Assembly (NCBI GenBank): GCA_002497075.1
Contig: DAML01000026.1
Span: 276 to 64,275, forward strand
DNA length: 64,000 bases
Reading direction: 5' to 3'
Origin: Methanomassiliicoccaceae archaeon UBA472
Lineage (GTDB): Archaea > Thermoplasmatota > Thermoplasmata > Methanomassiliicoccales > UBA472
The translations under genes and the position numbers were made by a program. Shown here piece after piece: positions 29,701 to 57,769 of this stretch (positions are counted from its first letter, which is position 1; each line of letters starts with the position of its first letter). The notes beneath the pieces were generated by a model, which saw only the letters and a program-made list of their open reading frames with translations, ran no database searches and was not told the origin of the DNA.

Positions 29701-31880
29701 TTCCTGAATACCTCGTTATGATCGGAGCCGTATAATTTGATCCCAACAGTAGAGCTTGGACCATTAGCGGGGTTGTCTGCGATGCAGGTGTTCTTATCCA
29801 GAATGTTGTACTGTGCATTCTCCAGCAATATACCGCAATTGCCATTGTCCTGGCAATAGTTGTTGAACAGGGTGTTGCTGGCAGAGGTGCCTATGACGAT
29901 TCCGTGCCCGATGTTCTGATTACAAGTGTTGTACGACAACAGATTCCTTTCAGAATAACCGACCGTTATGCCATGCATGGCGTTATTGTTGCAGGAGTTC
30001 AGAATTAACGTGTTGTCATCGCTGTCCGAGCTTAGCAAGATGCCATATGTGTTGCCGTCGCACACGTTGCCAGCGATCGTGCTGTCACTGGACTGGAAAA
30101 CCACGATGCCATCATAGTTCCCGGTGCAAGTGTTATTGAGCATCGACGAACCGGGAGAGTTGGATACGCTAATTCCGTCATAGTTTCCGGTGCAAGTGTT
30201 ATTGCTGACCGTGGAATTGGCAGAGGATTCGATCACTATCCCGACATTCCCGCTACAGGTGTTGTACGATATCGAATTGTTCGCCGAGCCGTCCAGCAGT
30301 ATACCTGTGTAGACATTATCTATGCAGGTGTTGTGGTCAATGTCGTTCAGCTGGGAAATGCCCGTAACGTATATGCCAAACTCATTATCGGTGCAGTTGT
30401 TCTCGGTGATCGAGTTGCCCGACGAATTATAGAGGAATAATCCGAAGGTGTTCCCATCGAGGTCGTTCCCAGACAACTCGTTGAGATCGGAATCGGAGAG
30501 GTATATACCGTCCGTGTTGAGCTCTCCGGTATTGTTCCGTATCACGCAGCGCTCAGAATTATCCAGCCATATCCCGGAATCCCCATTTTGGTAGACGGTG
30601 TTGGACGAAACTATGGTGTATGAGGAACCTTCGAGCCTAATTCCAGAACCGGCATTATCGTGGACGGTGTTGAAGGCAATGGTATTGTTTGGCGAGTTGA
30701 GGATGTAAATTCCGTAATAGTTGTCGCTGCAGTCGTTCCCTACCATGGTGTTGTACGACACCAGATAGGAACCTGACCACAGTTGAATGCCGTAGCATTC
30801 CCAAAGTGCGCCAGGGTACGAGCACTGATTGTTGAGAACCGTGTTGAATCGGCTATCGAAATAGCCGGATTTGATAATTATCCCGGCGTAGGCGTACCCG
30901 TTGCAGTGGTTGTCCGAGACGGTGTTGTTATTGGAGGAGTCGACCTCTATGCCGTTCCCTTCGTTGTCGAGGCAGGTGTTGGCGTGGACGGTGTTGTTGT
31001 CAGAGAGGGTGAGCAGTATCCCGCCGTAATTGTAACTGCAATTGTTCTCGATGAGGGCGTTGTAATGGGAATAGTCAAGAGTTATGGCCGCGGAACCGCT
31101 CAGGCCGTTGCTACAGTTATCCCTGAACAAGGTATTGTTGACCGCGTCGATCAGGGCGATGCCGGTCCCGCATGCGTATAAGGTATTGTTGGAAACGGTG
31201 TTGTTGGCGCTGAAGTCTATTGTGATGCCGCTGTTCTGAGAGCGGATGCAGATGTTACCGTTGATGACGTTCCAGTCGCTCTCCGATTGAACTAGTATCC
31301 CATCGAACGTGTCGTTGCAGGTGTTATTGTTTAAGATGTTATCGCTGGATTCGGTGAGATATACACCAGTTTGCCCACCCGAGCAGTTGTTGTAACGTAT
31401 CGCTACTTCGTTCGAACCGTCCAGGTAGACGCCCACATCGTTTTCCCTGCAATCGTTCCCGTTCACGACTATGTTCGAACAGGCCCCCAAATAGATTCCG
31501 AATGTGGTCTGGTTGCAGGAGTTGTTCTCCAGGACGACGTTCTGAACGTTGTAGAACCTTATCGCGTAGTTCGTGGGATCGTGCAGGACGCAGTCCTTGA
31601 TCACCAGGTATCGGTCGGTGTTCCTGATCCAGATCGCCGCATCATACGTGGCGGCATTGATGTCCAGGTTCTCGATTATGTAGGGATCTGCTTCCGTGCC
31701 TAAACCAGCCCAGGCAGGATTGCTGCCGAACAGGTCGTCCAATTCCGCGTTGCCGTCGACGCTGATGGGCATGAACGGATCTGCCGCCTCGGCAGAACCC
31801 GCCATCAATGTGGACAACAAGACTAGAGCAGTAAAGATCAACAGAACAGATCCGATATACTTACCGAACACCTTTTGCAT
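26709..31880 (-). CDS. giant cell-surface protein: signal peptide, about 870 aa of parallel beta-helix (PbH1/NosD-like) repeats, tandem Ig-like domains, carboxypeptidase-regulatory-like domain, C-terminal TM anchor
   Basis: 1723 aa. The N-terminus is a signal peptide ending AGSAEA. Repeats of about 22-23 aa of the type NNTCxxNxxGIxl recur dozens of times. The Ig-like modules contain W.GSD..SG...Y motifs. The C-terminus is VMVIAVLAIIAVVAVAAVVYFKKK. Confidence 0.85.
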   Translation of the reverse strand: MQKVFGKYIGSVLLIFTALVLLSTLMAGSAEAADPFMPISVDGNAELDDLFGSNPAWAGLGTEADPYIIENLDINAATYDAAIWIRNTDRYLVIKDCVLHDPTNYAIRFYNVQNVVLENNSCNQTTFGIYLGACSNIVVNGNDCRENDVGVYLDGSNEVAIRYNNCSGGQTGVYLTESSDNILNNNTCNDTFDGILVQSESDWNVINGNICIRSQNSGITIDFSANNTVSNNTLYACGTGIALIDAVNNTLFRDNCSNGLSGSAAITLDYSHYNALIENNCSYNYGGILLTLSDNNTVHANTCLDNEGNGIEVDSSNNNTVSDNHCNGYAYAGIIIKSGYFDSRFNTVLNNQCSYPGALWECYGIQLWSGSYLVSYNTMVGNDCSDNYYGIYILNSPNNTIAFNTVHDNAGSGIRLEGSSYTIVSSNTVYQNGDSGIWLDNSERCVIRNNTGELNTDGIYLSDSDLNELSGNDLDGNTFGLFLYNSSGNSITENNCTDNEFGIYVTGISQLNDIDHNTCIDNVYTGILLDGSANNSISYNTCSGNVGIVIESSANSTVSNNTCTGNYDGISVSNSPGSSMLNNTCTGNYDGIVVFQSSDSTIAGNVCDGNTYGILLSSDSDDNTLILNSCNNNAMHGITVGYSERNLLSYNTCNQNIGHGIVIGTSASNTLFNNYCQDNGNCGILLENAQYNILDKNTCIADNPANGPSSTVGIKLYGSDHNEVFRNICEHNGVGLIMDGSNFNSISFNELNYNNYFMGLRRSINVVSSSNNNITNNSCMGSDYGISISGGDDIRMEGNDFSNNADKGIEINNIWYDKARYVIANNTCIGNVYGIWVQGPLYDSRVINNTCEDNSMAGMYFEYRSYNNVIADNTLVNNHNGMILTGVGDDDCYGNTIANNTIESSMAYGISITSSTRNHIFGNVLIGNNGATSEYDPAHVQAYDSGENFWNDTEYGNLWADWTSPDSNGDGIVDEAYLIDGGASKDLLPLAVSVAITSPADGFATGETSVDISGTALSYFGVDHLTWHNAANDASGDCYGTDAWTAAVPLADGDNVITVTMVDLHGSEANASITVVLDVVPPTLEITYPAEGAYLGSSVTVTWNGSDAESGIDYYAVSIEGMFFVNVTGSSYTINDLADGTYTVLVSAYDAVGNYLDMAVSFTVDVTSPTVTIDSPADNFLSTDNSVTVIWNGSDIGSGVDRYEVSWEGGSPVTLLPSVNTYTFNGLSDGSHVLTVTIYDKAGRSSSDSVTVKVDIQAPSLSITYPAEGGYVANSEVTVTWAGFDAGTGITYYTVSMEGSFSINTTGSSYTINDLEDGTYTVMVSAYDALGNCRDEVVTFIVDTIAPTLEIDTPEEGQLFNVTSVTVTWTTSDVNPGTIQIRFDGEPWVLVYEEQFVKLALTAGPHAVYVKVTDAAGNFAISSGNFTLDLDDPVVVIVSPAEGALLNDTVGTVEWTAEDPTSSLNGTFVRVDGGNWTELGSATAWIYSLEDGAHTIEVKVTDAAGNSATATVNFTVDTTAPTAEVSPTGDQASLSPLIVVEFSELMNQTSVEITVDGVEGSVDWSGNTATLTLSQRLAYGTAHNVTVTGTDLAGNSMTTSWTFSTLSVGSVQGKLVNGDGDPLEGIEVRLSNGDNVTTDSQGSFLFEQVGEGNYTLTVDADGYEVLSMSVESAAEGITDLGELTLVSADDGGENGGTPWVMVIAVLAIIAVVAVAAVVYFKKK

Positions 31881-46249: not shown

Positions 46250-46325
46250 TGGTGGGTCTGTCCGAATTTGAATCGGAGTCACCTGCACCCCAAGCAGGAA
46301 GGATTCCAAGCTACCCCACAGACCC
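46250..46325 (-). tRNA. tRNA-Pro (anticodon GGG), CCA encoded
   Basis: The reverse complement reads GGGTCTGTGGGGTAGCTTGGAATCCTTCCTGCTTGGGGTGCAGGTGACTCCGATTCAAATTCGGACAGACCCACCA. The acceptor stem is GGGTCTG/CAGACCC. The anticodon stem is CCTGC/GCAGG with loop TTGGGGT. The T arm is TCCGA-TTCAAAT-TCGGA. Confidence 0.9.
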
Positions 46326-46347
46326 ATTGTAAAGGGGTGAAAGAGGT

Positions 46348-46539
46348 TTAACCCAGGGGGATCAGCTCACCGAGCAGGTCCGAGTGGGAGATTATCATAC
46401 GGCGGCAGCAGTACCGTTTGATGTCCAGATCGTCCAGCACTTCTTGGGGGTTCTCCCCCATCTGCACCCTCTTGACGAAGGTCTGGTAGGAGCTTCCCAC
46501 CACCTTGCCGCACGTGAAACATCTTACCGGTATTATCAT
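46348..46539 (-). CDS. rpoN: DNA-directed RNA polymerase subunit N (Rpb10 homolog)
   Basis: 63 aa. [14 protein letters not shown]...YCCRRM zinc-binding signature. Confidence 0.93.
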
Positions 46540-46545
46540 TTCTGC

Positions 46546-46947
46546 TCACCTGTACGATTTCTGCCTCTTCTTCCTGGCGCCACGACCCAGCGGCTTCTTC
46601 GGGAGCTTGCGGCGAACGTCGCTGATCAGCAGGGACCTGTCAAAGTGCTTGAAGGCCAGCTTCAGCTCCTCGTCGTTGAAGAACTCCACGATGGCCTTGG
46701 CGATGGCGGTACGGGTGGCCTCCGCCTGACCCATAACGCCTCCGCCAGCCACGCTGACGTCGATATCGATCTTGGCGGCCTTTTCAGGCACCAAGGTCAA
46801 AGGCTCGGCCATCTTCAGCCTAGCCAGTTCGGGGGTGACGATGTCCAGCGGCACGCTGTTGATGCGCACCTTGCCGGTTCCCTCGCGGGCGACCGCGCGG
46901 GCCACCGCCGTCTTCCTCTTACCACTGGTGTTGACAACTTCGGACAT
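46546..46947 (-). CDS. rps9: 30S ribosomal protein S9 (uS9)
   Basis: 133 aa. [10 protein letters not shown] near the N-terminus and a basic C-terminus ending KKRQKSYR. Confidence 0.95.
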
Positions 46948-46948
46948 A

Positions 46949-47368
46949 TCACTTCACCCTCGAGCCCAGGTATTCAGCTATCTGACTGAGCGTGACGTAT
47001 TGGGTCAGCCCGGTCTTGATCGCCACGTCGACCTTCTCCTTCTGCATGTCGACGAACTCCTTCGGTACGCCTACGTAGACCTTCAGTCTCCTGTAGGCCT
47101 CCCTGCCGGAGGTGGTCTTCCAAGGAAGCATCCCGCGGACGGTCCTCTTCATGATGAGGTCAGCGCGGCGGGGGAAGAACGGGCCGCTCTTGACGTTACC
47201 CAGGTCCTTCTTCTGCTTGTAAGAGGCAAGTACGGAGTCGCGCTCGCCGGTGATTATGATCTTCTCGGCGTTGACGACGACTATCTCCTCGCCCTTCAGA
47301 AGCCTCTTGGCTATTACGGTAGCAAGTCTTCCTGCGATGTGGTTCTCAGCGTCTATGATTGCAACCAT
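46949..47368 (-). CDS. rpl13: 50S ribosomal protein L13 (uL13)
   Basis: 139 aa. [20 protein letters not shown] and [19 protein letters not shown]. Confidence 0.95.
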
Positions 47369-47372
47369 CTGC

Positions 47373-47732
47373 TCACCTCATTATCTTCACGCCAGTTCCC
47401 TGGGGCATCTCCTTGACCAGCTCCATGATGGTCAAGTTCTTGCCCCCGGCAGCCATGATCTTCATCTTGGCGGACTCAGAGAACCCGTAGGCGGCTACGG
47501 TCACTTTCTTGTTGATCGCTCCAGACCCCAACACCTTTCCCGGTACGACTATGACGTCGCCCTCGGAGGCATATCGCTCGATCTTGCTCAGATTGACCTC
47601 GGCCCAATTGGCCTTGGCCTTTTCCAATCTTAGAGCAATGTCTCGCCAGATCCCCGCACCGCTGGACCTCGACTCCGCCTTCAGGGCGGATATGAGGGTC
47701 AAGAGATTGGGGTCAGTCTTTGCATGTGCCAT
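47373..47732 (-). CDS. rpl18e: 50S ribosomal protein L18e (eL18)
   Basis: 119 aa. Position at the head of the conserved archaeal L18e-L13-S9-RpoN cluster, and the GKVLGSG motif. Confidence 0.9.
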   Translation of the reverse strand: MAHAKTDPNLLTLISALKAESRSSGAGIWRDIALRLEKAKANWAEVNLSKIERYASEGDVIVVPGKVLGSGAINKKVTVAAYGFSESAKMKIMAAGGKNLTIMELVKEMPQGTGVKIMR

Positions 47733-47957
47733 GTTCTGACTCTCCCGACATTGGTAAGCCCCTCTAATATGGAGGGGTATTAAATACCTTTGCCATCCAA
47801 TCGAGGCTAGAGAGGAGGGCCGCCGCGTACCACTGGCTCAGTGGCATGGCGGTCCTGATAGCATCTATGCGGTGCCGGCATCATGATCATTGCCAAGTCG
47901 GGCATTGAACGATGTACACTATAATATTAACGCCTTTAAATTAATTTTTGATAGCCC

Positions 47958-47965
47958 TTATATAT
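47958..47965 (+). promoter_or_regulatory. TATA box candidate for the 48004 gene
   Basis: ttatatat lies 39 nt upstream of the ATG at 48004, in a 271-bp AT-rich divergent intergenic region. Confidence 0.4.
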
Positions 47966-48003
47966 CTCATTCGACATATCGTTTAGTTTGCTCGGGGTTT
48001 TAG

Positions 48004-49053
48004 ATGATTCGCTTTGGTCCAGCTGGTATTCCACTTTCTTGTAAGGGTCGCACTTTGAAGGACGGTATCGAGGATGTTCACGGCCTCGGCCTAAACGCCA
48101 TGGAGGTGCAGATGGTCAGGGTGAACGTGTCGCCGCGCTCCCCTGACGACGAGGAGGTCGGTCTGACCCCCCGCCAGCTCGATGGCGACCTAGTGGTGGA
48201 GATGCACCGTAAGAAGGGCAAGAAGGACGTTCAGATTACTAATCTGGATGAGAAGATAAAGGAGGACGATGTCCTGATCAGCCTCTCGTCCGGGCTCGCC
48301 CACAACTTCGACGAACTGCAGAAGCTGGGAGTAATGGGAAGCGAGCTCGATGTTGAGCTATCCATGCACACCCCATATTACATAGACCTGGCCGGCGAGG
48401 GCGATCTCACCAAGAAGAGCATGGACTCCATCCGCTGGGCCGGGCTCATGACCCAGGCCATGGGCGGCAACATGGTTGTAACCCATATGGGGCTTTACGG
48501 CAACATCAGCCGCCGCGAGGCCGCGGAGAACATATCCGACCGTTTGGAGGAGATCGTCACCTGGTGGGAGAAGAACAAGCTCACCCCCAGATTGGGTCTG
48601 GAGACCTCCGGACGCAAGGAAGTGTTCGGGGGTTTGGACGAGATCATGGATCTGTGCGACAAGTTCGACCGCCTGTCGCCTGTGGTCAATTTCGCCCACC
48701 TTCACGCCCGCAGCAACGGCATGCTGCGCGAACCGGAGGACTTCGCTGAGGTCTTCGACAAGGTCAGCAGCTACGTCGGCGGATTTCATTACACTCATTT
48801 CTCGGGCGTGGAGCACGAGGGGGGCAACGAGAGAAGGGTCACCCCCATCAAGAAGGGCGACCTGCGCTTTGAGCCGATGGCCGAGTACCTGGCCGATGCA
48901 AATCTGAACGCCACGATCATCTCCAGCTCTCCGCTCTTGGAGCATGACGCCATGTACATGAAGGTCATTTACGAAAGGGTCATGACCAAGAGGGTCACTA
49001 AGGACATCAAGGTCAAGAAAGGCAAGGGTGCCAAGGACGAGGATGAGGATTGA
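48004..49053 (+). CDS. xylose-isomerase-like TIM-barrel protein (AP endonuclease 2 / endonuclease IV-related family)
   Basis: 349 aa. The N-terminus FGPAGIP... and the HTPYYIDL, THMG and HYTHFSG metal-ligand contexts resemble the family. It has a charged insert and a Lys/Asp/Glu-rich tail. Confidence 0.7.
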   Translation: MIRFGPAGIPLSCKGRTLKDGIEDVHGLGLNAMEVQMVRVNVSPRSPDDEEVGLTPRQLDGDLVVEMHRKKGKKDVQITNLDEKIKEDDVLISLSSGLAHNFDELQKLGVMGSELDVELSMHTPYYIDLAGEGDLTKKSMDSIRWAGLMTQAMGGNMVVTHMGLYGNISRREAAENISDRLEEIVTWWEKNKLTPRLGLETSGRKEVFGGLDEIMDLCDKFDRLSPVVNFAHLHARSNGMLREPEDFAEVFDKVSSYVGGFHYTHFSGVEHEGGNERRVTPIKKGDLRFEPMAEYLADANLNATIISSSPLLEHDAMYMKVIYERVMTKRVTKDIKVKKGKGAKDEDED

Positions 49054-49589
49054 AGGAGACCACCGCCTACATTCTTGACGAGGTCAGGCGGACCATCGAA
49101 AAGGTCGACGAGACGATAATAGATGATATCGTCACCACCCTCGCCGCCGCCCCCAAGATATTTATCTACGGGGTTGGACGGTCCGGACTGGTCGGCGAGG
49201 CGTTCGCCGCCCGTCTGGTGCAGATCGGCCTCAACGTTCATTTCGTCGGAGACACGACCACGCCTATCGTGGAGAAGGGGCACGTCGTGCTCATCATCTC
49301 CAACACCGGGGAGACCATGTCCGCGGTGCAGACCGCCAACATCGTCCGTCGTCTGGGAGCGGTGGTGATAAGCATCACCGGCAGCGCCCACTCGAAGCTG
49401 GGGATCGCCAGCAACATCGTGATGGAGCTTGTGCAACCGAGGGATGAGCAGAAGAAGAGGAACGCGCCGCTTGGAACGATATTCGAGGCGTCCAGCATGG
49501 TCATGATGGACTCCATGGTGCCGCTTCTGATGGCCAAGCTGAACCAGGACGAGTCCTCGTTAAGACGAAGGCACGCCATCTGGGTCTGA
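49050..49589 (+). CDS. phi: 6-phospho-3-hexuloisomerase (SIS domain)
   Basis: IFIYGVGRSGLVGEAFAARLVQIGLNVHFVGDTTTP, PLGTIFEASSMVMMD and the C-terminal LNQDESSLRRRHA closely parallel archaeal PHI. The TTG start overlaps the upstream stop. Confidence 0.88.
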   Translation: MKETTAYILDEVRRTIEKVDETIIDDIVTTLAAAPKIFIYGVGRSGLVGEAFAARLVQIGLNVHFVGDTTTPIVEKGHVVLIISNTGETMSAVQTANIVRRLGAVVISITGSAHSKLGIASNIVMELVQPRDEQKKRNAPLGTIFEASSMVMMDSMVPLLMAKLNQDESSLRRRHAIWV

Positions 49590-50186
49590 TCACATCCTTA
49601 TTTTCCGGGGACGAACGCTCTCGCCGTAATAGGGATTCTGGAACTCGTCCCAGTACACCAGGAACTTTCTGCGCCGAACTTCGTCGTTGGAAAGGCAGAA
49701 GGCGTCCATCTCCTTGCGGATGGGATCGACCACCAGGGCGGTATGGTATGGCTTATCGAACATCCCCTTCTGGGTTGACACGTCCGTAGAGGAAAGGAAG
49801 CAGCCGTGCCCGGGATGGGAGTGGTACCAGCCCACGAGCACGTAGCGGAACCGGGCGCATTCCAGTGAGGCGAACAGTGATTCGAAGCCCTCCGGGTCGA
49901 ATCTGACGCTTACGGACGTCGCTTCCAGATCGGTGGTGGCCACATCACGGACCACCGTGTATTCCGCGCCTTTGTGCGTGAACACCTCGCCGAGCAGGAA
50001 GCCCATGACCTCCAGCCCCGCCTTTACCTGGGAGAGGGCGTGGTTGCGCACCTTCTCCTCGGCGGTCTTGAAGAGATACATCTCCGCCCCCCTGATGTCC
50101 GTGTAAAGCGATGCGGCCTCCTTGGGCAGCCACTTGTGCGGCAGCGTTCTCTCCTCGGCCGGGGGCAGCATCTCCTCCACCTCCAT
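49590..50186 (-). CDS. MPN+/JAMM metalloprotease (Rpn11-like deubiquitinase candidate)
   Basis: About 198 aa. GFLLGE (catalytic Glu context) and the complete JAMM motif WYHSHPGHGCFLSSTD. I chose the ATG at 50186, 32 nt after the E2 stop; the ORF is open back to 50402. Confidence 0.85.
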   Translation of the reverse strand: MEVEEMLPPAEERTLPHKWLPKEAASLYTDIRGAEMYLFKTAEEKVRNHALSQVKAGLEVMGFLLGEVFTHKGAEYTVVRDVATTDLEATSVSVRFDPEGFESLFASLECARFRYVLVGWYHSHPGHGCFLSSTDVSTQKGMFDKPYHTALVVDPIRKEMDAFCLSNDEVRRRKFLVYWDEFQNPYYGESVRPRKIRM

Positions 50187-50218: not shown

Positions 50219-50725
50219 TCAACGACGCACCACCTTGGGAGCGGGGGCGATTATCACCGGAGGTGTTCGACGGGGGGAGGAATTGAAGTACTGGGCGGCG
50301 GCGGTGCAGGTGTCGGTGCCGAACGGGCTGTTGCCGTTCGGCGAGATGAGCAGGGATTCCAGCCCCTTTATGAAATTGGATAACGTGGAATTGAAGGACC
50401 ATTCCGAGAGCAGCTTGATGCAGACATGACCGCCATCCTCGGGCATCATGATGTTGGGATGGAATATCGGCGTCCTCCAGATCACCAGCGGCTTCTCGAA
50501 CGGATATTCTCGGCCGATTATCAGCTCCAGCCGGTGGTTGTAACGGTAACCGAGCTTCCCGTTCTCCATGACCGGGCCGGGTATGCCTTCCATGGCCACC
50601 TCCACCTTCAGCGGGAACGTCGTCAGATGCCCTTCGCTGTAATCGAAGTCTTTGGGGAGGTTGTGATGGCAGGCCTCCAGCTCGTTCCTCAATCTTATGT
50701 AAAGGATCTCCTGGGGCAGGGTCAT
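50219..50725 (-). CDS. ubiquitin-conjugating enzyme E2 (UBC fold)
   Basis: 168 aa. YPFEKPLVIWRTPIFHPNIMMPEDGGHVCIKLLSEWSF...LESLLISPNGNSP reproduces the eukaryotic UBC pattern YPf.pP...F.t.i.HPNi...G.iCl..L...W...i..LL..PN...P, including the catalytic Cys. Confidence 0.8.
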   Translation of the reverse strand: MTLPQEILYIRLRNELEACHHNLPKDFDYSEGHLTTFPLKVEVAMEGIPGPVMENGKLGYRYNHRLELIIGREYPFEKPLVIWRTPIFHPNIMMPEDGGHVCIKLLSEWSFNSTLSNFIKGLESLLISPNGNSPFGTDTCTAAAQYFNSSPRRTPPVIIAPAPKVVRR

Positions 50726-50967
50726 CTGTTCCCGCCCTCGGGGTCGGGTATCAGCTCAAGCTCCTCGTTGGCCTGGACATCCAGTTCCTGGACCTTCTGC
50801 TGACCGCGTAGCAAGCGCCGGCCCTTACGGATGACGTAGGCGCCCGGGTCCTTCTCCCAATAGGCCGAGACGCCCTCGATGATCTCCTCCACGGTGTTCT
50901 CCATCTCCAGCTCCATGTCGACCGTGGCACCGGTCTCCGCGTTCCTGACCCTTACCCTTACCACCAT
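50722..50967 (-). CDS. ubiquitin-like (beta-grasp) modifier precursor ending GG-NR
   Basis: 81 aa. The alternating beta-strand-like start is VVRVRVRNAETGATVDMEL. The C-terminal tail is LELIPDPEGG followed by two extra residues (NR). The stop overlaps the E2 start (ATGA at 50722-50725). Confidence 0.65.
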   Translation of the reverse strand: MVVRVRVRNAETGATVDMELEMENTVEEIIEGVSAYWEKDPGAYVIRKGRRLLRGQQKVQELDVQANEELELIPDPEGGNR

Positions 50968-51025: not shown

Positions 51026-51913
51026 TTATGATAATTTGGCCGAGAGATGATTGGAACAGCCTGGGTCGATGTCTAGGGCGAATACTTCGCTCGTCCCCGC
51101 CAGACCATCGTAATGCATCACGTTCGCGATCGCCGATCTTCCGGAGAGGATCTTCACCGCCTCCCTCACCTGCACGGCGGCTACTATGCTGGTGGTGGTT
51201 ATCTCCGCCGCCATCTTCGGCTGGTAGAACACGGTGTCCTGACCGGTGCAGCTGAAGCGGCGCTCCATGACCTTGAAGTGGCTGCGGTTCATGCCGCATT
51301 GCAAGCATGGCGAAAACGGAGGGACGACCGCCTGCACCCTTCCCCGGAACCCGTCCGTGCCGCCGTCCACGTAAGGCACCTGGGCATGATAGGAGTTGGC
51401 GTTCAGGTGCAGTCGGGCCGCAACGTTATCCAGGCACCCCAGTATCATGTCGTATCGTTTCATATCCTCCGGACCCAGGGACTGTACCTTCCCCTCGATG
51501 GCCTTGATATCGATCTCCGGACATAGCCCCCTGGCCCTCTCCGCGACCAATGGCGCTTTGCCTTTTCCGGATGATTGATCGCCTTCCCGGAACAGCACAC
51601 AGCGGCTGAGGTTTGACCGCACCACGGTATCCATGTCCAGAACGTCCACGTGGCGGAAGCCGAAGAGCGCCAGGTCCTTCACCGCTTCGTTCCCCAGCGC
51701 ACCCGCTCCGACGACGAGCACGTTGGAGGAACTTACCTTATCCATGTCCACCCAGGTAATGAGCCTGGTCCGGTCGTGGCGGTCCTCGTCCCTTTCCCCT
51801 GGACGGATCAGCTCGGCCATGTCGGGAGCGACCGATCCCTGACTATAAAAAAATGGACCGTACCAGTACATATTGTGATATTCACGAACATATGGACTGG
51901 ACGGTAACCTCAT
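51026..51913 (-). CDS. ThiF/MoeB/UBA-type E1-like adenylating enzyme
   Basis: About 296 aa. The nucleotide-binding motif is VLVVGAGALGNEAVKDLALFGFRHVDVLDMDTVVRSNLSRC. GCLDNVAARLHLN and the CxxC motif (PCLQCG) are also present. I chose the ATG at 51913 because the longer ORF (to 52348) would run antisense through ppk. Confidence 0.85.
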   Translation of the reverse strand: MRLPSSPYVREYHNMYWYGPFFYSQGSVAPDMAELIRPGERDEDRHDRTRLITWVDMDKVSSSNVLVVGAGALGNEAVKDLALFGFRHVDVLDMDTVVRSNLSRCVLFREGDQSSGKGKAPLVAERARGLCPEIDIKAIEGKVQSLGPEDMKRYDMILGCLDNVAARLHLNANSYHAQVPYVDGGTDGFRGRVQAVVPPFSPCLQCGMNRSHFKVMERRFSCTGQDTVFYQPKMAAEITTTSIVAAVQVREAVKILSGRSAIANVMHYDGLAGTSEVFALDIDPGCSNHLSAKLS

Positions 51914-51946: not shown

Positions 51947-54073
51947 ATGCCGGCCCGCAAGAGCAGCGCAGACCGTAAGACCAGTGCTCGCAACAGCAAG
52001 TCCAAGAAGCAGTCCAGGAACTCGCCGTTCATCAACCGGGAGATCAGCTGGGTACGGTTCCACAAGCGAATACTTGAGGAGGCGCAGGACACCGCCCACC
52101 CCATTTTGGAGAGGGTGAAGTTCCTGGCCATCTGCGGCAGCAACCTGGACGAGTTCTTCATGGTCCGGGTGTCCGGGCTGATGAGTCAGTTGAAGAAGGG
52201 CGCCCTGGAGGCACCGCCGGACGGACTGACGCCTTTGGAGCAGCTGGAGACCATCAGTGAGGAAATTCTGCCGTTGCTGGAAGCGCACGGCAAGCTGTGG
52301 CATGAAGATCTCCAGCCCAAGCTGAGGACGGCGGGTATCAGTATCCACACCGTGAAGGACCTCGAGCCAGACAAACGCCAGGGATTACGCGATTACTTTG
52401 AGCGGATGATCTTCCCGGCCTTGACGCCATTGGCCTTGGACTTCAATCAACCGTTCCCGTTCATTTCCAACCTGAGCATCAACCTGGCCGTCAGCGTGAG
52501 GCATCCCCAGAGAGGGGACCGCTACGCCCGGGTCAAGGTCCCTCTAAGCCTATTCCCTCGCTTCGTGCCTATCCCCGGAAGCGCACTAGGAAAGCAGCAG
52601 GACTTTGTTCTGCTGGAGGACCTGGTGGCCGATAACCTCGATCTGTTGTTCCCGGGCATGAAGGTGCGGGACGTGCACGTGTTCCGCATAACCCGTGATG
52701 CGGACATCGAGATAACCACCGACGAGGCGGAGGACCTTCTGACCGCCGTCGAAGAGAGCGTGGAGACCAGACGTGTCGGTTCACCGATCCGCCTGGAGGT
52801 GGACAACGACATGCCGGATAAGCTCGTCGACCTCTTCGCCACGAAGCTAGGGCTCCATCCTCTGATGGTGTTCCGCTCCCACGCTCCACTCTCGCTGGTC
52901 GGATTCTGGGACCTTCTTTCACTTAACCGACCGGACCTCAAGGACCCGCCGTTCCTTCCCTATGTGCCGCCGGACCTGGTGCCCGAGAAGTCGCTGATGT
53001 CCGCGGTGGAGCATCGCGACCGGCTGTTCTATCATCCTTACGATTCCTTCGTGCCGTTGGTAACCTTCCTGAAGCAGGCGGCCAACGACCCCCAGGTGCT
53101 GGCGATAAAGATCACTCTTTATCGCATCGACAAGCACTCTCCGATCATCGACGCTCTCATGGAAGCGAGGGAGAACGGCAAGGCGGTGGCTGCGGTGGTC
53201 GAACTGAAGGCGCGCTTCGATGAGGAGAACAACATCGTCTGGGCTCGGGCCTTGGAGAACGCCGGCGTCCACGTGGTCTACGGCCTCATGGACCTGAAGG
53301 TGCATGCCAAGCTGCTTCTCGTCGTCCGTAAGAAGGGCGACAGCATCGTGCGTTACAGTCACATGAGCTCTGGGAACTACAACGCACAGACGTCCCGCAT
53401 CTACGGTGACATAGGATACCTCACCGCCGACCCGGACATCGGGGCGGACGTGGCCGACCTGTTCAATTACCTCACTGGATACTCGCACAAGGACTCCTAC
53501 CGAAAGCTGCTGGTGGCGCCTGTGGCACTGAAGAAGGAGATGATCGCTCGCATCGACCGCGAGGCGGCCAGGCAAAGGGAGCATGGGGACGGGTATCTGG
53601 CCTTCAAACTGAACGGTCTTCTGGACCCGGACATCATTCTGGCGCTGTACCAGGCCTCTCAGGAAGGCGTCCGCATCGATCTGAACGTGCGCGGGCTGTG
53701 CGCCTTGCGCCCCGGCGTGAAGGGGCTTAGCGAGAACATCAAGGTCAACAGCATCGTCGGGCGCTTCCTGGAGCACGCCAGGATATACTACTTCCGCAAC
53801 GGTGGTGAGGAGGAGGTGTTACTGGGCAGCTCGGACATGATGCCCCGCAACCTCAAGCGCAGGGTTGAGGTGCTGTTCCCCGTGCTGGACGAGCAGTACC
53901 GCCGGCGGCTGGTGGACGAGATACTGTCTATACATCTGAAGGACAACGCCAAGTCCCGCGACATGCTGCCCGACGGCACCTACGTCAAAAGGAAGATCGC
54001 CAAGGGCGAGGAGAGGGTTGATTCCCAGGCCTGGCTGATCAAGAACCGCGGTTCCTGGCACAGGGAGGAGTGA
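51947..54073 (+). CDS. ppk: polyphosphate kinase 1
   Basis: 708 aa. FINREISWVRFHKRILEEA N-terminus, the autophosphorylated-His region VVYGLMDLKVHAKLLLVVR and the PLD-like HxK motifs. Confidence 0.95.
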   Translation: MPARKSSADRKTSARNSKSKKQSRNSPFINREISWVRFHKRILEEAQDTAHPILERVKFLAICGSNLDEFFMVRVSGLMSQLKKGALEAPPDGLTPLEQLETISEEILPLLEAHGKLWHEDLQPKLRTAGISIHTVKDLEPDKRQGLRDYFERMIFPALTPLALDFNQPFPFISNLSINLAVSVRHPQRGDRYARVKVPLSLFPRFVPIPGSALGKQQDFVLLEDLVADNLDLLFPGMKVRDVHVFRITRDADIEITTDEAEDLLTAVEESVETRRVGSPIRLEVDNDMPDKLVDLFATKLGLHPLMVFRSHAPLSLVGFWDLLSLNRPDLKDPPFLPYVPPDLVPEKSLMSAVEHRDRLFYHPYDSFVPLVTFLKQAANDPQVLAIKITLYRIDKHSPIIDALMEARENGKAVAAVVELKARFDEENNIVWARALENAGVHVVYGLMDLKVHAKLLLVVRKKGDSIVRYSHMSSGNYNAQTSRIYGDIGYLTADPDIGADVADLFNYLTGYSHKDSYRKLLVAPVALKKEMIARIDREAARQREHGDGYLAFKLNGLLDPDIILALYQASQEGVRIDLNVRGLCALRPGVKGLSENIKVNSIVGRFLEHARIYYFRNGGEEEVLLGSSDMMPRNLKRRVEVLFPVLDEQYRRRLVDEILSIHLKDNAKSRDMLPDGTYVKRKIAKGEERVDSQAWLIKNRGSWHREE

Positions 54074-56217
54074 AGTTGTCCGAGGACCTATGCGCCTATG
54101 GACGGCTGGTTACCGCACAGAGGCTGGAGGCGCTCTTGGCCGAGGTCGAGGGAGTGCGGACCGGGGAGGACATCGAATACGTGCACCGGATGCGCGTGGC
54201 CTCCCGGCGCCTGCGCTCCGCGCTTCGCATATTCGAGGAATGCTTCAAAGGCAAGAAAGGAAAGAAGTGGAGAAGAGCGGTCAGACAGGTCACCACCTCG
54301 CTCGGCGAGGCGAGGGACCTGGACGTGCAGATGGACCTGCTCGGCTCTATCGGAAAAAGCTGGGAAGGGGAGGAGGCGGTCGGCCTAGCGCTCATTATCG
54401 AGATGCTCAGATGCCGACGCACGTCCCTGCAGCCGGACGTCGTTACGCTGATGGAATCCATCGTCGGCGACGGCGATCTCGCAGAGATGAGAACGGAACT
54501 TGCTGCTCCTACGGAGTGGAAAGGCGATCCGTCCGTCCTCTATCCATACGCCTATGCCCACGCCGCGGTGGCCGTCGAGGAGCTGATGGAGCATTCCCAT
54601 TCCGTCCCGGTCTATGAGGATTGGCAGGGGCACCACGCCCTGCGTATCGCCGGCAAGCATTTGCGTTATGCGCTCGAGGCTTTCCGGGACGCTTACCCAG
54701 ATGGGCTGGATGGCGAGCTGAAGGCCCTCAAGAAGCTGCAGGATACGGTTGGCGAGCTGCACGATTGCGACGTCTGGCTGCAGCGGTTGCCCGGTCTGCG
54801 CGAGGAAGCGCCCAGCGCGGTCAAGGCCATTGACCGCCTCCAGATCACGTTCGGGTCGAGAAGGAAAGAGCTGCACGCGAAGCTCGTGGAGCAATGGTTC
54901 GCTATTCTGCAGGAGCGCTTCCTTTTCCGGCTGCTTGACGATCTTAAAGGCCGTCCGTTAGTGGAGGCTTGCCCGGTCAAGGTGGCCCTGATCTCGGACG
55001 CGCACGGGAACGTTTCCGCCCTTCGAGCGGTGATGGAGCATGCCCGGGCGAACGGAGCGACGGCCTTCCTGAACGCCGGGGACGCGGTGGGTCTGCCTCA
55101 ACCTCTGGAAACGATCCATCTGCTGAGGGACAAGGACGTCCTGAACGTCTTCGGCAACATCGACAGGGCGGCGTTGAAGATCGCCTCGGGTAAAAAGATC
55201 AAGGACCGCCAGTGGGAGATGGCGACGGAAATGCTCGGGGAGAACGAAATGGAATGGTTAGGCTCATTACCGGACGAGCTGCGCCTGGACATCTGCGGCC
55301 GAACCGTGCTGGTCACCCACGCCTCCCCAGGACAGGAGGCGGAGAAACTGACCCCATCCACGCCTGAGACCAGGCTGCGCCATCTGGCCGAGGAGAGCGG
55401 GGCGGACGTGATCGTCACCGGGCATTCGCACGTTCCGATGGTCCGGGAGAGTGCTGGAACATTGTTCGTCAATCCGGGGAGCGTGGGACGCCCCCGCGAC
55501 GGAGCTGACGCTTCCTACGCCCTGCTGGACTTCCCGTCCATGAATGTCAAGCTCATCAGGGTTCCCTACGACGCAAGAGGCGTCGCCGACGAGATCCGGG
55601 CGCAGGGATTCAAGGACCTGCCCCAGGACGTTGAGAACGGGCGAACGGAGGACAAGGTCAAGGACGCCGCGGCCTGGGCGGAACAGTTCGGTATCGACCG
55701 TCCGCACGCTGAGCAGGTGAGGACGCTCGCGGCGCTGATATTCGATAACGCACGAGGGCTGCACCGTCTCGACCCCAAGGACCGCGAGCTCCTGGAAATG
55801 GCGGCCATGGTGCATGACGTTGGGCTAAACGAAGGAGCGGAGGGGCATCAGAGAAGGGCCCTGGACATCGTTATGAAGGCGGGTCTGCCCCTGGACGAAG
55901 TGGAGAAAAGGATGCTGGCCTGCATCGCCCGCTATCACGGCATGCGCTCTCCGCGCCGTGAAGACCGGGTGTTCAAGGGACTGACCCAATCGGAGCGGAA
56001 GAGGGTGACCAAGATCTCGGCCATCCTTGCATTGGCTGATGGCCTGGACCGCAGCCACTCCTCCCTGGTGGGAGGATTGGAAGTGATCGTGGGCAGAAAG
56101 GCCGTGAAGATCATGATCTCCGGACAGGGAGACCTTTCAACGGAAAAGGAATGGGGAACCCGAAAAGCTGTACAGTTCGCCCGTGCCTTCGGCCGGGAGG
56201 TGACCGTCAATGGTTGA
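54070..56217 (+). CDS. tri-domain protein: CHAD domain + calcineurin-like metallophosphoesterase (YfcE/MJ0936-like) + HD domain
   Basis: Residues 1 to about 300 are CHAD (VHRMRVASRRLRSALRIFEE, HALRIAGKHLRYALEAF). Residues about 305-530 are the phosphoesterase (VALISDAHGN, NAGDAVG, LVTHASPG, VTGHSHVP, NPGSVGRPRDG). Residues about 540-715 are the HD domain (AAMVHDVGL, IARYHG). The start overlaps the ppk stop. Confidence 0.8.
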   Translation: MKLSEDLCAYGRLVTAQRLEALLAEVEGVRTGEDIEYVHRMRVASRRLRSALRIFEECFKGKKGKKWRRAVRQVTTSLGEARDLDVQMDLLGSIGKSWEGEEAVGLALIIEMLRCRRTSLQPDVVTLMESIVGDGDLAEMRTELAAPTEWKGDPSVLYPYAYAHAAVAVEELMEHSHSVPVYEDWQGHHALRIAGKHLRYALEAFRDAYPDGLDGELKALKKLQDTVGELHDCDVWLQRLPGLREEAPSAVKAIDRLQITFGSRRKELHAKLVEQWFAILQERFLFRLLDDLKGRPLVEACPVKVALISDAHGNVSALRAVMEHARANGATAFLNAGDAVGLPQPLETIHLLRDKDVLNVFGNIDRAALKIASGKKIKDRQWEMATEMLGENEMEWLGSLPDELRLDICGRTVLVTHASPGQEAEKLTPSTPETRLRHLAEESGADVIVTGHSHVPMVRESAGTLFVNPGSVGRPRDGADASYALLDFPSMNVKLIRVPYDARGVADEIRAQGFKDLPQDVENGRTEDKVKDAAAWAEQFGIDRPHAEQVRTLAALIFDNARGLHRLDPKDRELLEMAAMVHDVGLNEGAEGHQRRALDIVMKAGLPLDEVEKRMLACIARYHGMRSPRREDRVFKGLTQSERKRVTKISAILALADGLDRSHSSLVGGLEVIVGRKAVKIMISGQGDLSTEKEWGTRKAVQFARAFGREVTVNG

Positions 56218-57769
56218 GCCGGAAAAAGGAAAGGTCGTGGCTTTCCTGGACGTCGGTACCAACTCCGTCCGGCTGCTGGTGGTGCGCATCAATCCCAACC
56301 GCTCTTACACGGTCATCAGCGAACAGAAGGAGATGGTGAGGCTGGGCGAACAGGAGTTCTCGGACGGACTGCTGCTGGAGAGCGCCATGGAACGGGCGGT
56401 GAGGGTGACAAAGAACTTCTGCGACCTTTCCAAAACGTACGGAGCGACGGAGTTCGTGGCCATGGCCACCTCGGCCACCCGGGAGGCGTCCAACCGCTCC
56501 GAGCTGGTCGAAAGAGTTAAGGAAGCCACCGGCCTGGAGCTGCAGATCATCTCGGGCATGGAGGAGGCCAGGCTGATCTATCTCGGCGTGTCGAGCGGGC
56601 ACCACATCGGCCGCAAGACCGCCCTGTTCCTGGACATCGGCGGGGGCAGCACCGAGCTGGCCCTGGGCGATCAGAACGAGTATTCCTATCTGGAAAGCCT
56701 GAAGGTGGGGGCCATCCGCCTCACCACCATGTTCGTGAAGAAGCCGGAGGCGCCGATCCCTGACGACGCCTTGGTCAAGATGCGCAAGTACGTGAAGAGC
56801 TCGCTGGTCCGGGCGAAGAAGGAGATAGTGCAGAGCAAGGTGTCCCTGGCCTTCGGCAGCTCCGGGACCGTGGTGAACCTTGGCGAGATATTGCTGCGCC
56901 AGGACAGCAGCTCGCGCCCCGGGGTGATCAGGTACTCGCAGCTGAGGAAACTGACACCCCAACTGGCGTCGCTGGACCTGGCCGCCCGGCGCAAGGTGCC
57001 CGGGATGAACCCGGAGAGGGCGGACATAATCGTGGCCGGGGCGATGGTCCTGGAAACGGTCATGGACGAGCTGAAGCTGAACGAGATCGCCGTAAGTCAG
57101 CGAAGTATGCGGGACGGGATGCTGCAGGACTATCTCGGCGGTCTGGAGGAGTTCCCGGGCTTCCGCGAGCTGTCCGTGCGCGAACGCAGCGTGATCCAAT
57201 TGGGGCGGGCCTGCTCGATAGATGAGGAGCACGCCCGGCGGGTGACGTCCATAGCATTGGAACTTTTCGACAGCGCCACGAAGAAGGGCCTGCACACTTT
57301 GGGCAAGAAGGAGCGGGAGATGCTGAACCACGCGGCCTTCCTGCACGACGTGGGCGATTTCATCTCCTTCAACGATCATCATCTGCACTCGCACTACATT
57401 ATCTGCCACGCCGAGCTGCTGGGATTCTCCAACCGCGAGGTGTTGCTCATCGCCAACATCGCCAAGTATCACCGCAAGCGCACGCCGAAGATGAGGGCGG
57501 CCGACCTGCGCGAACTGGATGAGAAGGACCAGCAGGTGCTGATCCGCCTATCGACGCTGCTGAGAATGGCCGAGAGCCTGGACCGTTCCCACTCCAATCT
57601 GGTGCAGAACGTGCGCTTCAGCAAGGTGACGAAACGCTCGGTCAAGCTGATAATCACCGCCAGCGGGGACCCCCAGCTGGAGATGTGGCGCATGGAAGAA
57701 GATCGAAAAGCATTCAAGAAGGCCTACGGAAAGGACCTCATGGTGGTATTGAACAACATCGAAGGCTGA
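56210..57769 (+). CDS. ppx: exopolyphosphatase / guanosine pentaphosphate phosphohydrolase family (Ppx/GppA) with C-terminal HD domain
   Basis: FLDVGTNSVRLLVV, DIGGGSTEL, and C-terminal HAAFLHDVG and IAKYHRK. The start overlaps the upstream stop by 8 nt. Confidence 0.92.
   Translation: MVEPEKGKVVAFLDVGTNSVRLLVVRINPNRSYTVISEQKEMVRLGEQEFSDGLLLESAMERAVRVTKNFCDLSKTYGATEFVAMATSATREASNRSELVERVKEATGLELQIISGMEEARLIYLGVSSGHHIGRKTALFLDIGGGSTELALGDQNEYSYLESLKVGAIRLTTMFVKKPEAPIPDDALVKMRKYVKSSLVRAKKEIVQSKVSLAFGSSGTVVNLGEILLRQDSSSRPGVIRYSQLRKLTPQLASLDLAARRKVPGMNPERADIIVAGAMVLETVMDELKLNEIAVSQRSMRDGMLQDYLGGLEEFPGFRELSVRERSVIQLGRACSIDEEHARRVTSIALELFDSATKKGLHTLGKKEREMLNHAAFLHDVGDFISFNDHHLHSHYIICHAELLGFSNREVLLIANIAKYHRKRTPKMRAADLRELDEKDQQVLIRLSTLLRMAESLDRSHSNLVQNVRFSKVTKRSVKLIITASGDPQLEMWRMEEDRKAFKKAYGKDLMVVLNNIEG

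Follow-up and report, generated by a model that had tools for sequence, protein, structure and literature searches.

A Methanomassiliicoccales operon predicted to encode a ubiquitin-type modifier in a Gly-Gly-Asn-Arg pro-form together with an E1, an E2 and an Rpn11-like JAMM protease

We analysed a 64,000-nucleotide stretch (the window) of Methanomassiliicoccaceae archaeon UBA472 (assembly GCA_002497075.1, contig DAML01000026.1, positions 276 to 64,275 of the forward strand), in which four co-directional genes on the minus strand encode, in this order, an E1-like activating enzyme, an 81-residue ubiquitin-like protein (Ubl), an E2 conjugating enzyme and a metalloprotease of the JAMM family (Table 1). 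The Ubl carries two residues, Asn-Arg, behind its Gly-Gly. Taken together, the predicted fold of the Ubl, a Gly-Gly that stays constant while the residues behind it vary, and the conserved catalytic motifs of the accompanying enzymes make it likely, in our judgement, that a conjugatable ubiquitin-type modifier is made here in precursor form, which the JAMM protease would trim after the Gly-Gly.

The Ubl reading frame runs from 50967 to 50722, opens with ATG GTG GTA and closes with the codons CCC GAC CCC GAG GGC GGG AAC AGA TGA. Gly78-Gly79 are encoded at 50731-50736, ahead of the Asn80-Arg81 codons and the stop at 50722-50724. The sequence-only reading of this DNA had the frame terminate in P-D-P-E-G-G-N-R, and the codons on the minus strand bear this out.

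As the same reading had predicted, the Ubl adopts a beta-grasp fold in the AlphaFold model, and its topology is that of ubiquitin (beta-beta-alpha-beta-beta-3/10-beta). The model, computed with a 63-sequence alignment, reached a predicted local distance difference test score (pLDDT) of 91.8 and a predicted template modelling score (pTM) of 0.80; it places strands at residues 2-9, 15-21, 44-48 and 68-74 and a helix at residues 26-36, and residues 75-81 are unstructured and of low confidence. Foldseek superposes it on ubiquitin structures in the PDB with template modelling (TM) scores of 0.82-0.86 and root-mean-square deviations (rmsd) of 1.2-1.6 Å, and on the Caldiarchaeum ubiquitin CsUb (6fno_D) with a TM score of 0.86. 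The best 50 matches in the PDB are ubiquitin, SUMO, ISG15, Hub1 and CsUb (TM 0.79-0.86, rmsd mostly 1.1-2.1 Å, 71-80 alignment columns), at a sequence identity to ubiquitin of only about 17-18% in these alignments.

Searched as a single sequence, the Ubl gave sub-threshold matches to ubiquitin (E=0.012) and to YukD in Pfam, and against the PDB only summed polyubiquitin matches, again sub-threshold; NCBIfam models cover neither the Ubl nor the E2. Because these sequence-only searches are weak, the assignment needed the fold prediction and the family profile together. The profile matches only (poly)ubiquitin chains in the PDB, with G79 aligned with G76 of ubiquitin, and in a library of 1.8 billion proteins it picks up eukaryotic polyubiquitin at E ~1e-5.

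The C-terminal segment ELELIPDPEGG had been described as a flexible acidic tail resembling the exposed tails of ubiquitin-family proteins. In the model, D75-R81 are indeed exposed and acidic, but ELELIP forms strand beta-5, and the resemblance does not extend to charge, the end of the Ubl being acidic and the LRLRGG of ubiquitin basic. With an acidic rather than a basic exposed end (DPEGG), recognition by the E1 must therefore differ from that of ubiquitin.

Within the family, the Gly-Gly contrasts with what follows it. We compared the 120 best Ubl homologues, which, where names are given, come from Methanomassiliicoccales, Thermoplasmata or Methanobacteriota metagenome-assembled genomes (MAGs). 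PDP-x-GG is present in 118 of them, the other two being without this C-terminal segment, and it was found at every related genome locus examined, so that a chance occurrence can be dismissed. The residues invariant in the 63-sequence alignment are G13, M18, N24, W37, G42, V45, E71, P74, D75, P76, G78 and G79. Behind the Gly-Gly, 47 of the 118 homologues are tail-less and the remaining 71 carry 1-15 residues without common sequence, for example NR, SR, A, C, KW, CHVPAC, YRAPPQ and NSVPRGRNRVSKDGA. Even the close relatives (14 genomes, Ubl 89-100% identical) have NR, NK, KI or SR at this place. An alignment of orthologues had been suggested as a check on the pro-form, and it shows an invariant Gly-Gly with a tail that varies in length and sequence; this tail is neither a conserved regulatory element nor a selected signal. 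Of the 71 tailed homologues, 49 have A, G, S, C or N as their first tail residue (P1'). This is compatible with the steric preference of CsRpn11, the Rpn11 homologue of Caldiarchaeum (PMC6043591), but the residue is constrained too by the overlapping DNA.

The gene junction points to the origin of the tail. When one genome per species was scanned, 200 genomes proved to have a relative; 80 loci were kept, and all 80 belong to Methanomassiliicoccales, Thermoplasmata, Thermoplasmatota or unclassified euryarchaeal MAGs. At protein level, the Ubl of UBA472 is 100% identical to those of MAGs UBA8940 and PPR_0077. Junctions were counted in 78 species-level genomes, where the order E1-Ubl-E2-JAMM occurs almost everywhere; it was also seen on independent contigs with tails of 0, 2 and 6 residues. 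The E2 start codon lies 2-8 nucleotides (nt) past the last G of the Gly-Gly codons in 68 of the 78. A stop directly behind the Gly-Gly leaves no tail in 36 genomes, where the JAMM gene is still present; a TGATG overlap gives one residue in 19, and the xxA-TGA overlap of UBA472, kept throughout its 14 close relatives, gives two in 14. Longer tails have five residues (2 genomes) or six (7 genomes), the latter arising where the E2 starts at GTG and the Ubl frame enters the E2 by 17 nt. The tail is thus whatever the Ubl frame encodes across the E2 junction before a stop, a by-product of gene overlap, and the stop position would drift freely because the protease would erase the tail.

Genomes with a Ubl-E2 spacer of 20-21 nt have their own purine-rich AGGAG- or GGGGG-like motif ahead of the E2 start. 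This points to GAGGGCGG, formed by the Glu-Gly-Gly codons, as a possible E2 ribosome-binding site where the junction is compact. Rfam and tRNA scans of the window found only a tRNA-Pro and no rRNA.

At the far end of this range, five distinct relatives (P0133, P0172, P0190, P0200 and P0211) are in-frame Ubl-GG-E2 fusions with DP-x-GG invariant at the junction. The C-terminus of an E1 lies upstream of P0200 (L089, 526-1356), and downstream of P0133 (L088, 259-1008) come a gene for a 213-residue membrane protein and then a JAMM gene. An independent contig carries one of the fusions again, in frame, at 97% identity and with an E1 gene upstream of it; P0133 occurs only once, on a 2.9-kb contig, and is weak by itself. 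Such fusions can yield an activatable Ubl only if something cuts after the Gly-Gly.

The search also recovered relatives of other architecture. A weaker-scoring sister group of 79-143 residues (P0188, P0193, P0195, P0201, P0204, P0207, P0210, P0217 and P0218) keeps (I/L)PDP with no Gly-Gly after it, as in ...ELIPDPTELMF and ...EIIPDPFFL. Further proteins join a Ubl domain without Gly-Gly to other C-terminal modules (P0136, P0143, P0148 and P0186, about 185 residues; P0168, P0175, P0182, P0184 and P0208, 145-178 residues). By eye, one group of these carries a candidate FHA-like domain, and a second group a domain of about 70 residues ending ...(E/K)YRP(L/I/M); these fusion proteins look like non-conjugatable Ubl-domain proteins. 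In one Thermoplasmata/Methanomassiliicoccales subclade (L065, 1452-2912; also L057, L066, L067 and L072), two opposite-strand genes, for a 275-residue protein and a 170-residue membrane protein, stand between E1 and Ubl, and neither encodes a RING protein. The Ubl-E2 spacer of this subclade is 20-21 nt long, with its own AGGAG-like motif.

The enzymes encoded around the Ubl match the E1, E2 and JAMM families. The E1 consists of a single adenylation domain of ThiF/MoeB size, without a ubiquitin-fold domain in Pfam: the ThiF domain covers residues 199-431 of a 440-residue open reading frame (ORF), which is nearly the entire 264-residue E1, and orthologues have 260-274 residues. Its best solved relatives are SAE2 (4e-24), UBA3 (9e-23) and UBA1 (3e-22), followed by MoeB (2e-18) and ThiF (1e-17). 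At least 98% of 68 orthologues keep R17, the nucleotide loop G38/G40/A41/G43/N44/E45, D62/D64, S69-N70-L71-x-R73, D131, the pairs C172xxC175 and C255xxH258, and S190-C191-T192-G193, in which C191 is the candidate catalytic cysteine and which we take to resemble the catalytic-cysteine motif of eukaryotic E1s. The E2 scores 52.8 bits against UQ_con (curated cutoff 27), has 239 matches among solved chains of eukaryotic E2s at E<=0.01 (best 7e-09), and shares H89-P90-N91 and C102 with at least 98% of 81 orthologues.

The JAMM protein matches Rpn11 (4.4e-16), CSN5 (7e-14) and the Caldiarchaeum Rpn11 homologue (4e-11) in the PDB. E59, H122, H124, S132 and D135 are present in at least 98% of 70 orthologues, and the HxHx7Sx2D motif in 119 of 120 homologues. 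Its AlphaFold model (pLDDT 79.6) superposes in Foldseek on Rpn11, CSN5 and CsRpn11 (6fjv) with target-normalised TM scores of up to 0.77, the value reached with CsRpn11, at 29-37% identity to Rpn11 and CsRpn11. Judged by these matches, the protease is of Rpn11 type and not of desampylase type; with the NCBIfam models, it reaches 33 bits for the desampylase (cutoff 130) and the E1 reaches 74 bits for UbaA (cutoff 450). A low-confidence loop at residues 100-108 of the 210-residue form falls, by our reading of the Rpn11 alignment, at the position of Ins-1, the Rpn11 segment that grips the ubiquitin tail (PMC6043591), and is probably flexible. The conserved catalytic motifs of the operon enzymes indicate that these are under purifying selection.

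A JAMM protease had been noted two genes downstream of the Ubl. It is indeed the second gene downstream, with its E...HxH...S..D site intact, but the start given for it, 50186, is probably 12 codons short. Since orthologues have 209-210 residues and begin M-x-x-x-P-V-I-L-G-G-K-D like the TTG frame, translation probably starts at TTG 50222. The orthologues also share an N-terminal extension with a P-P...H-K-W-L motif (50126-50160, minus strand; residues ~9-20 counted from ATG 50186), in which P9, H17 and W19 occur in at least 98%. It precedes the stretch aligned to solved Rpn11 structures and could be a docking element.

The four genes are tightly packed. E1 and Ubl are 58 nt apart; Ubl and E2 share a 4-nt ATGA stop/start overlap, the E2 ATG at 50725-50723 having three bases in common with the overlap to the Ubl stop; and E2 and JAMM share a 4-nt TTGA overlap, given the inferred TTG start. 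The A/T-rich box TTTTTTTATA ahead of the E1 gene suggests a candidate archaeal promoter, from which a leaderless operon transcript would be made. No ORF was found between or beside the four operon genes.

Table 1. Features of the UBA472 window, with window coordinates
Feature	Position	Strand	Basis and remarks
Ubl gene, 81 residues	50722-50967	minus	ORF reading; precursor MVVRVRVRNAETGATVDMELEMENTVEEIIEGVSAYWEKDPGAYVIRKGRRLLRGQQKVQELDVQANEELELIPDPEGGNR
Predicted mature Ubl, residues 1-79, end ...ELIPDPEGG	50731..50967	minus	fold prediction, family profile and alignment
Asn80-Arg81 tail, predicted propeptide	50725..50730	minus	sequence; final base doubles as the A of the E2 ATG
E1-like activating enzyme, 264 residues	51026-51820	minus	Pfam ThiF 4.6e-46; ATG start set by orthologue alignment
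E2, UBC-fold conjugating enzyme, 168 residues	50219-50725	minus	Pfam UQ_con 4.1e-14
Rpn11/CSN5-like JAMM metalloprotease, ~210 residues	49590-50222	minus	Pfam JAB 1.5e-13; alternative ATG 50186 gives 198 residues
A/T-rich TATA-like box TTTTTTTATA	51844..51853	minus	read from sequence; 23 nt upstream of E1 ATG
tRNA-Pro(GGG)	46250-46325		tRNA scan
PPK1	51947-54073	plus	
CHAD, metallophosphatase and Ppx-GppA domain III fusion	54070-56217	plus	
Ppx/GppA	56210-57769	plus	

The operon is flanked by the divergent polyphosphate kinase gene and by a convergent SIS-domain gene (49050-49589). In relatives, the neighbours are usually SIS and AP_endonuc_2 genes, and a cluster of L18e, L13, S9 and RpoN genes was present in three of the four contexts read. 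The GC content of the operon is similar to that of its flanks. This conserved core-genome position, the flank-like GC content and the taxonomic range of the 80 loci listed fit vertical inheritance rather than a defence island.

Several features of the surroundings were recorded along the way. The downstream region 46250-49589, conserved across Thermoplasmata, comprises the SIS gene, a xylose-isomerase-like TIM-barrel gene and the genes for L18e, L13, S9 and RNA polymerase subunit N. On the other side, the polyphosphate cluster (51947-57769, plus strand) diverges from the E1 gene, and 127 bp separate the two start codons; its linkage is probably incidental, because the upstream neighbour differs in other genomes. 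Elsewhere in the window, a 1723-residue ORF (26709-31880, minus strand) with NosD/right-handed beta-helix repeats and many Ig-like domains presumably encodes a surface protein.

By homology with the Caldiarchaeum system, we propose that the JAMM protease would bind the Ubl and hydrolyse the Gly79-Asn80 bond. The short E1, probably a MoeB-like homodimer, would then adenylate Gly79 and take the Ubl over as a thioester on Cys191, from where the Ubl would move on to Cys102 of the UBC-type E2 with its HPN motif. The E2 would pass it to target lysines without an operon-encoded RING E3, and the same JAMM protease would also strip the Ubl from conjugates. Maturation would be needed only where the junction adds residues, as in the Ubl of UBA472. 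Because the JAMM gene is kept though about half of the Ubl family is already mature, the conserved job of the protease is probably deconjugation rather than maturation.

Several points weigh against this scheme. JAMM cleavage, E1 adenylation, the thioesters and the conjugates are all steps that we infer. Trimming is not an obligatory step in the family as a whole, as the tail-less Ubl of 36 of the 78 genomes (47 of the 118 homologues) attests, and an unrelated carboxypeptidase could nibble off a two-residue tail. CsRpn11 is sensitive to the residues past the cut (PMC6043591), and here P1' is Asn. A search of the six frames of the 64-kb window with C3HC4 and C3H2C3 regular expressions found no RING E3. 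The E1 is without a ubiquitin-fold domain, which recruits the E2 in eukaryotic and Caldiarchaeum E1s, and transfer from E1 to E2 is therefore less certain.

These points leave room for other explanations, of which the nearest is that a general carboxy- or aminopeptidase or some other protease removes Asn-Arg and that the JAMM protease is conserved only for stripping conjugates. It has in its favour that the tail of UBA472 has just two residues and that JAMM is kept in all genomes with a tail-less Ubl, so that maturation cannot explain its conservation. We nevertheless regard it as unlikely: CsRpn11, the closest characterised relative, does both trimming and deconjugation (PMC5654768, PMC6043591), the tails of 6-15 residues and the whole E2 fusions of the relatives need an endopeptidase specific for the position after the Gly-Gly, and there is no obvious reason for an exopeptidase to stop exactly at Gly79. 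It also seems quite unlikely that the tail stays on, with the Ubl being non-conjugated and acting non-covalently, or with the capped form as a dead end. The distant relatives that keep the PDP motif without any Gly-Gly do indicate that non-conjugatable versions of the fold exist. The clade of UBA472 itself, however, keeps the Gly-Gly, the E1 cysteine and adenylation motifs, the E2 HPN and cysteine and the JAMM site in all these 14 genomes while the tail shifts among NR, NK, KI and SR, which is the pattern expected of an active pathway with a disposable tail.

We give very little credence to the idea that the Ubl is a sulfur carrier or a beta-grasp protein of the small archaeal modifier protein (SAMP) or Urm1 type, ThiS/MoaD-like and served by a MoeB-like E1, with E2 conjugation secondary or absent. 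In its favour, the E1 has the size of MoeB and gives scores with the ThiF, MoeB and UbaA models, though all far below their cutoffs, and some SAMPs are known to be made as tailed precursors (cited in PMC5654768 Supplementary Note 7). On the other hand, every genome has a canonical UBC E2 with HPN and cysteine in translational coupling with the Ubl, the best 50 fold matches of the Ubl do not include MoaD or ThiS, the E1 scores higher against eukaryotic E1s than against MoeB or ThiF, and the JAMM protease appears Rpn11-like rather than desampylase-like. An assignment to the SAMP/UbaA/desampylase system was rejected on the presence and coupling of the E2 and on E1 and JAMM scores far below the NCBIfam cutoffs. 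Similarly, it is highly improbable that the operon serves to tag viral proteins, as a mobile antiviral defence cassette like those of Bil, Bub or CBASS (cyclic-oligonucleotide-based antiphage signalling system) type II. Bacterial Bil systems are E1-E2-Ubl-JAMM operons without an E3 (PMC11601596), and the E1 adenylation domain gave generic PADLOC matches to the E1-E2 (Cap2) and BilD models. PADLOC, however, recognises neither the Ubl nor the E2, its JAB matches are marginal, and the position beside SIS and AP_endonuc_2 genes, mostly with the L18e-L13-S9-RpoN cluster, the GC content and the taxonomic range of the 80 loci listed from 200 genomes all speak against a mobile origin. Assignment to a Bil, Bub or CBASS type II defence system was rejected in view of these generic E1 and marginal JAB matches and of the housekeeping synteny.

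A trimmed ubiquitin-type precursor, as proposed here, has its closest counterpart in the operon of Caldiarchaeum subterraneum, which encodes the CsUb precursor, an E1, an E2, the srfp RING E3 and CsRpn11 (Nunoura 2011; Hennell James 2017, PMC5654768; Fuchs 2018, PMC6043591). CsRpn11 removes the 9-residue propeptide of pro-ubiquitin exactly after the Gly-Gly, the uncleaved form is refractory to its E1, and the protease also cuts linear fusions and isopeptides (PMC5654768, PMC6043591). Both operons combine a ubiquitin-fold modifier with residues behind the Gly-Gly, an Rpn11-type JAMM protease, an E1 and a UBC-type E2 with HPN and cysteine. They differ in the tail (two residues, NR, and none in about half of the family, against the nine residues CGEPIRRAA), in the mature end (acidic PDPEGG against TRTVGG), and in that no RING E3 was found in the UBA472 operon or the 64-kb window. 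The 264-residue E1 is without the second Rossmann-like domain and the C-terminal ubiquitin-like domain of CsE1, the JAMM gene lies inside the operon and co-directional where that of Caldiarchaeum is divergent, and the host belongs to a mesophilic Thermoplasmatota lineage rather than to Aigarchaeota. In the Hennell James classification, clusters I and II carry the srfp RING E3 and the E1 ubiquitin-fold domain (UFD), neither of which was found here, and the short E1 resembles its 'cluster III'.

Other precursors follow the same principle. A Helarchaeial pro-ubiquitin has a 4-residue tail (bioRxiv 10.1101/2023.07.25.550441). In eukaryotic polyubiquitin, ubiquitin-ribosomal protein fusions, pro-SUMO and pro-NEDD8, a masked Gly-Gly must likewise be exposed before E1 activation; these are processed by deubiquitinating enzymes (DUBs) or ubiquitin-like protein-specific proteases (ULPs), whereas we presume a JAMM metalloprotease and not a cysteine DUB for UBA472, whose tail results from an overlap of the Ubl gene with the following operon gene. 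Bacterial Bub type I systems have a Ubl-E2 fusion, BubAB, in which the JAMM domain of BubCD cleaves behind a conserved Gly (PMC11601596). The Ubl-GG-E2 fusions of our relatives parallel BubAB, and the E3-less set of Ubl, E2, JAMM and E1 is shared with both Bub type I and Bil (PMC11601596). Bub, in contrast, works through oxyester intermediates with no catalytic cysteine in its E1, while this cysteine is conserved in the E1 and E2 of UBA472; and Bub and Bil are bacterial defence-island systems, while the context of the UBA472 operon is housekeeping. The SAMP, UbaA and HvJAMM1 proteins of Haloferax provide an archaeal beta-grasp modifier with a C-terminal Gly-Gly, an E1 of MoeB size and a JAMM protease able to cut linear extensions, but SAMPylation is E2-independent and the fold of our Ubl matches the ubiquitin type.

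In the papers searched, this lineage comes up in two places only: an Rpn11-like MPN protein that groups with eukaryotic Rpn11/Rpn8 was noted in Methanomassiliicoccus luminyensis in 2015 (PMC4453063), and an E2 tree contains a deep-branching Thermoplasmatota clade (bioRxiv 10.1101/2023.07.25.550441). Grau-Bove et al. listed euryarchaeal components in one marine group II genome only. None of the papers searched for Methanomassiliicoccales or Thermoplasmata together with ubiquitin, E2 or JAMM describes this Ubl, its pro-form or its operon. The mechanism itself is not new: that an Rpn11-like protease trims pro-ubiquitin has been established in Caldiarchaeum and seen in Asgard archaea. What our analysis adds is the same logic in a large, mostly mesophilic euryarchaeal lineage, with a relative in about 200 species-level genomes. 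The family also points to the origin of a propeptide, as read-through of a compact gene junction that would be tolerated through a Gly-Gly-specific protease and can be extended to Ubl-E2 fusions.

A broader reading, which we put forward tentatively and as somewhat less probable than not, is that Thermoplasmatota, Methanomassiliicoccales among them, carry a vertically inherited, E3-less and cysteine-dependent cassette of a short E1, a UBC E2 and an Rpn11-type protease, with a modifier class of its own that ends in an invariant, acidic PDPEGG, distinct from the systems of Aigarchaeota and Asgard archaea. In such a cassette, the boundary between Ubl and E2 would be fluid (separate, overlapping or fused) because the JAMM protease would make these versions equivalent as protein. 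The short tail could additionally serve translational coupling and gate activation through the JAMM protease. With no E3 and an E1 of MoeB size, the system would be minimal and could perhaps be put together from four small proteins. Relatives may exist in cultivable methanogens, and M. luminyensis, which is cultivable, could become an in vivo model. If this broader reading is true, E2-dependent ubiquitylation would be older or wider in Archaea than the view centred on TACK and Asgard archaea holds.

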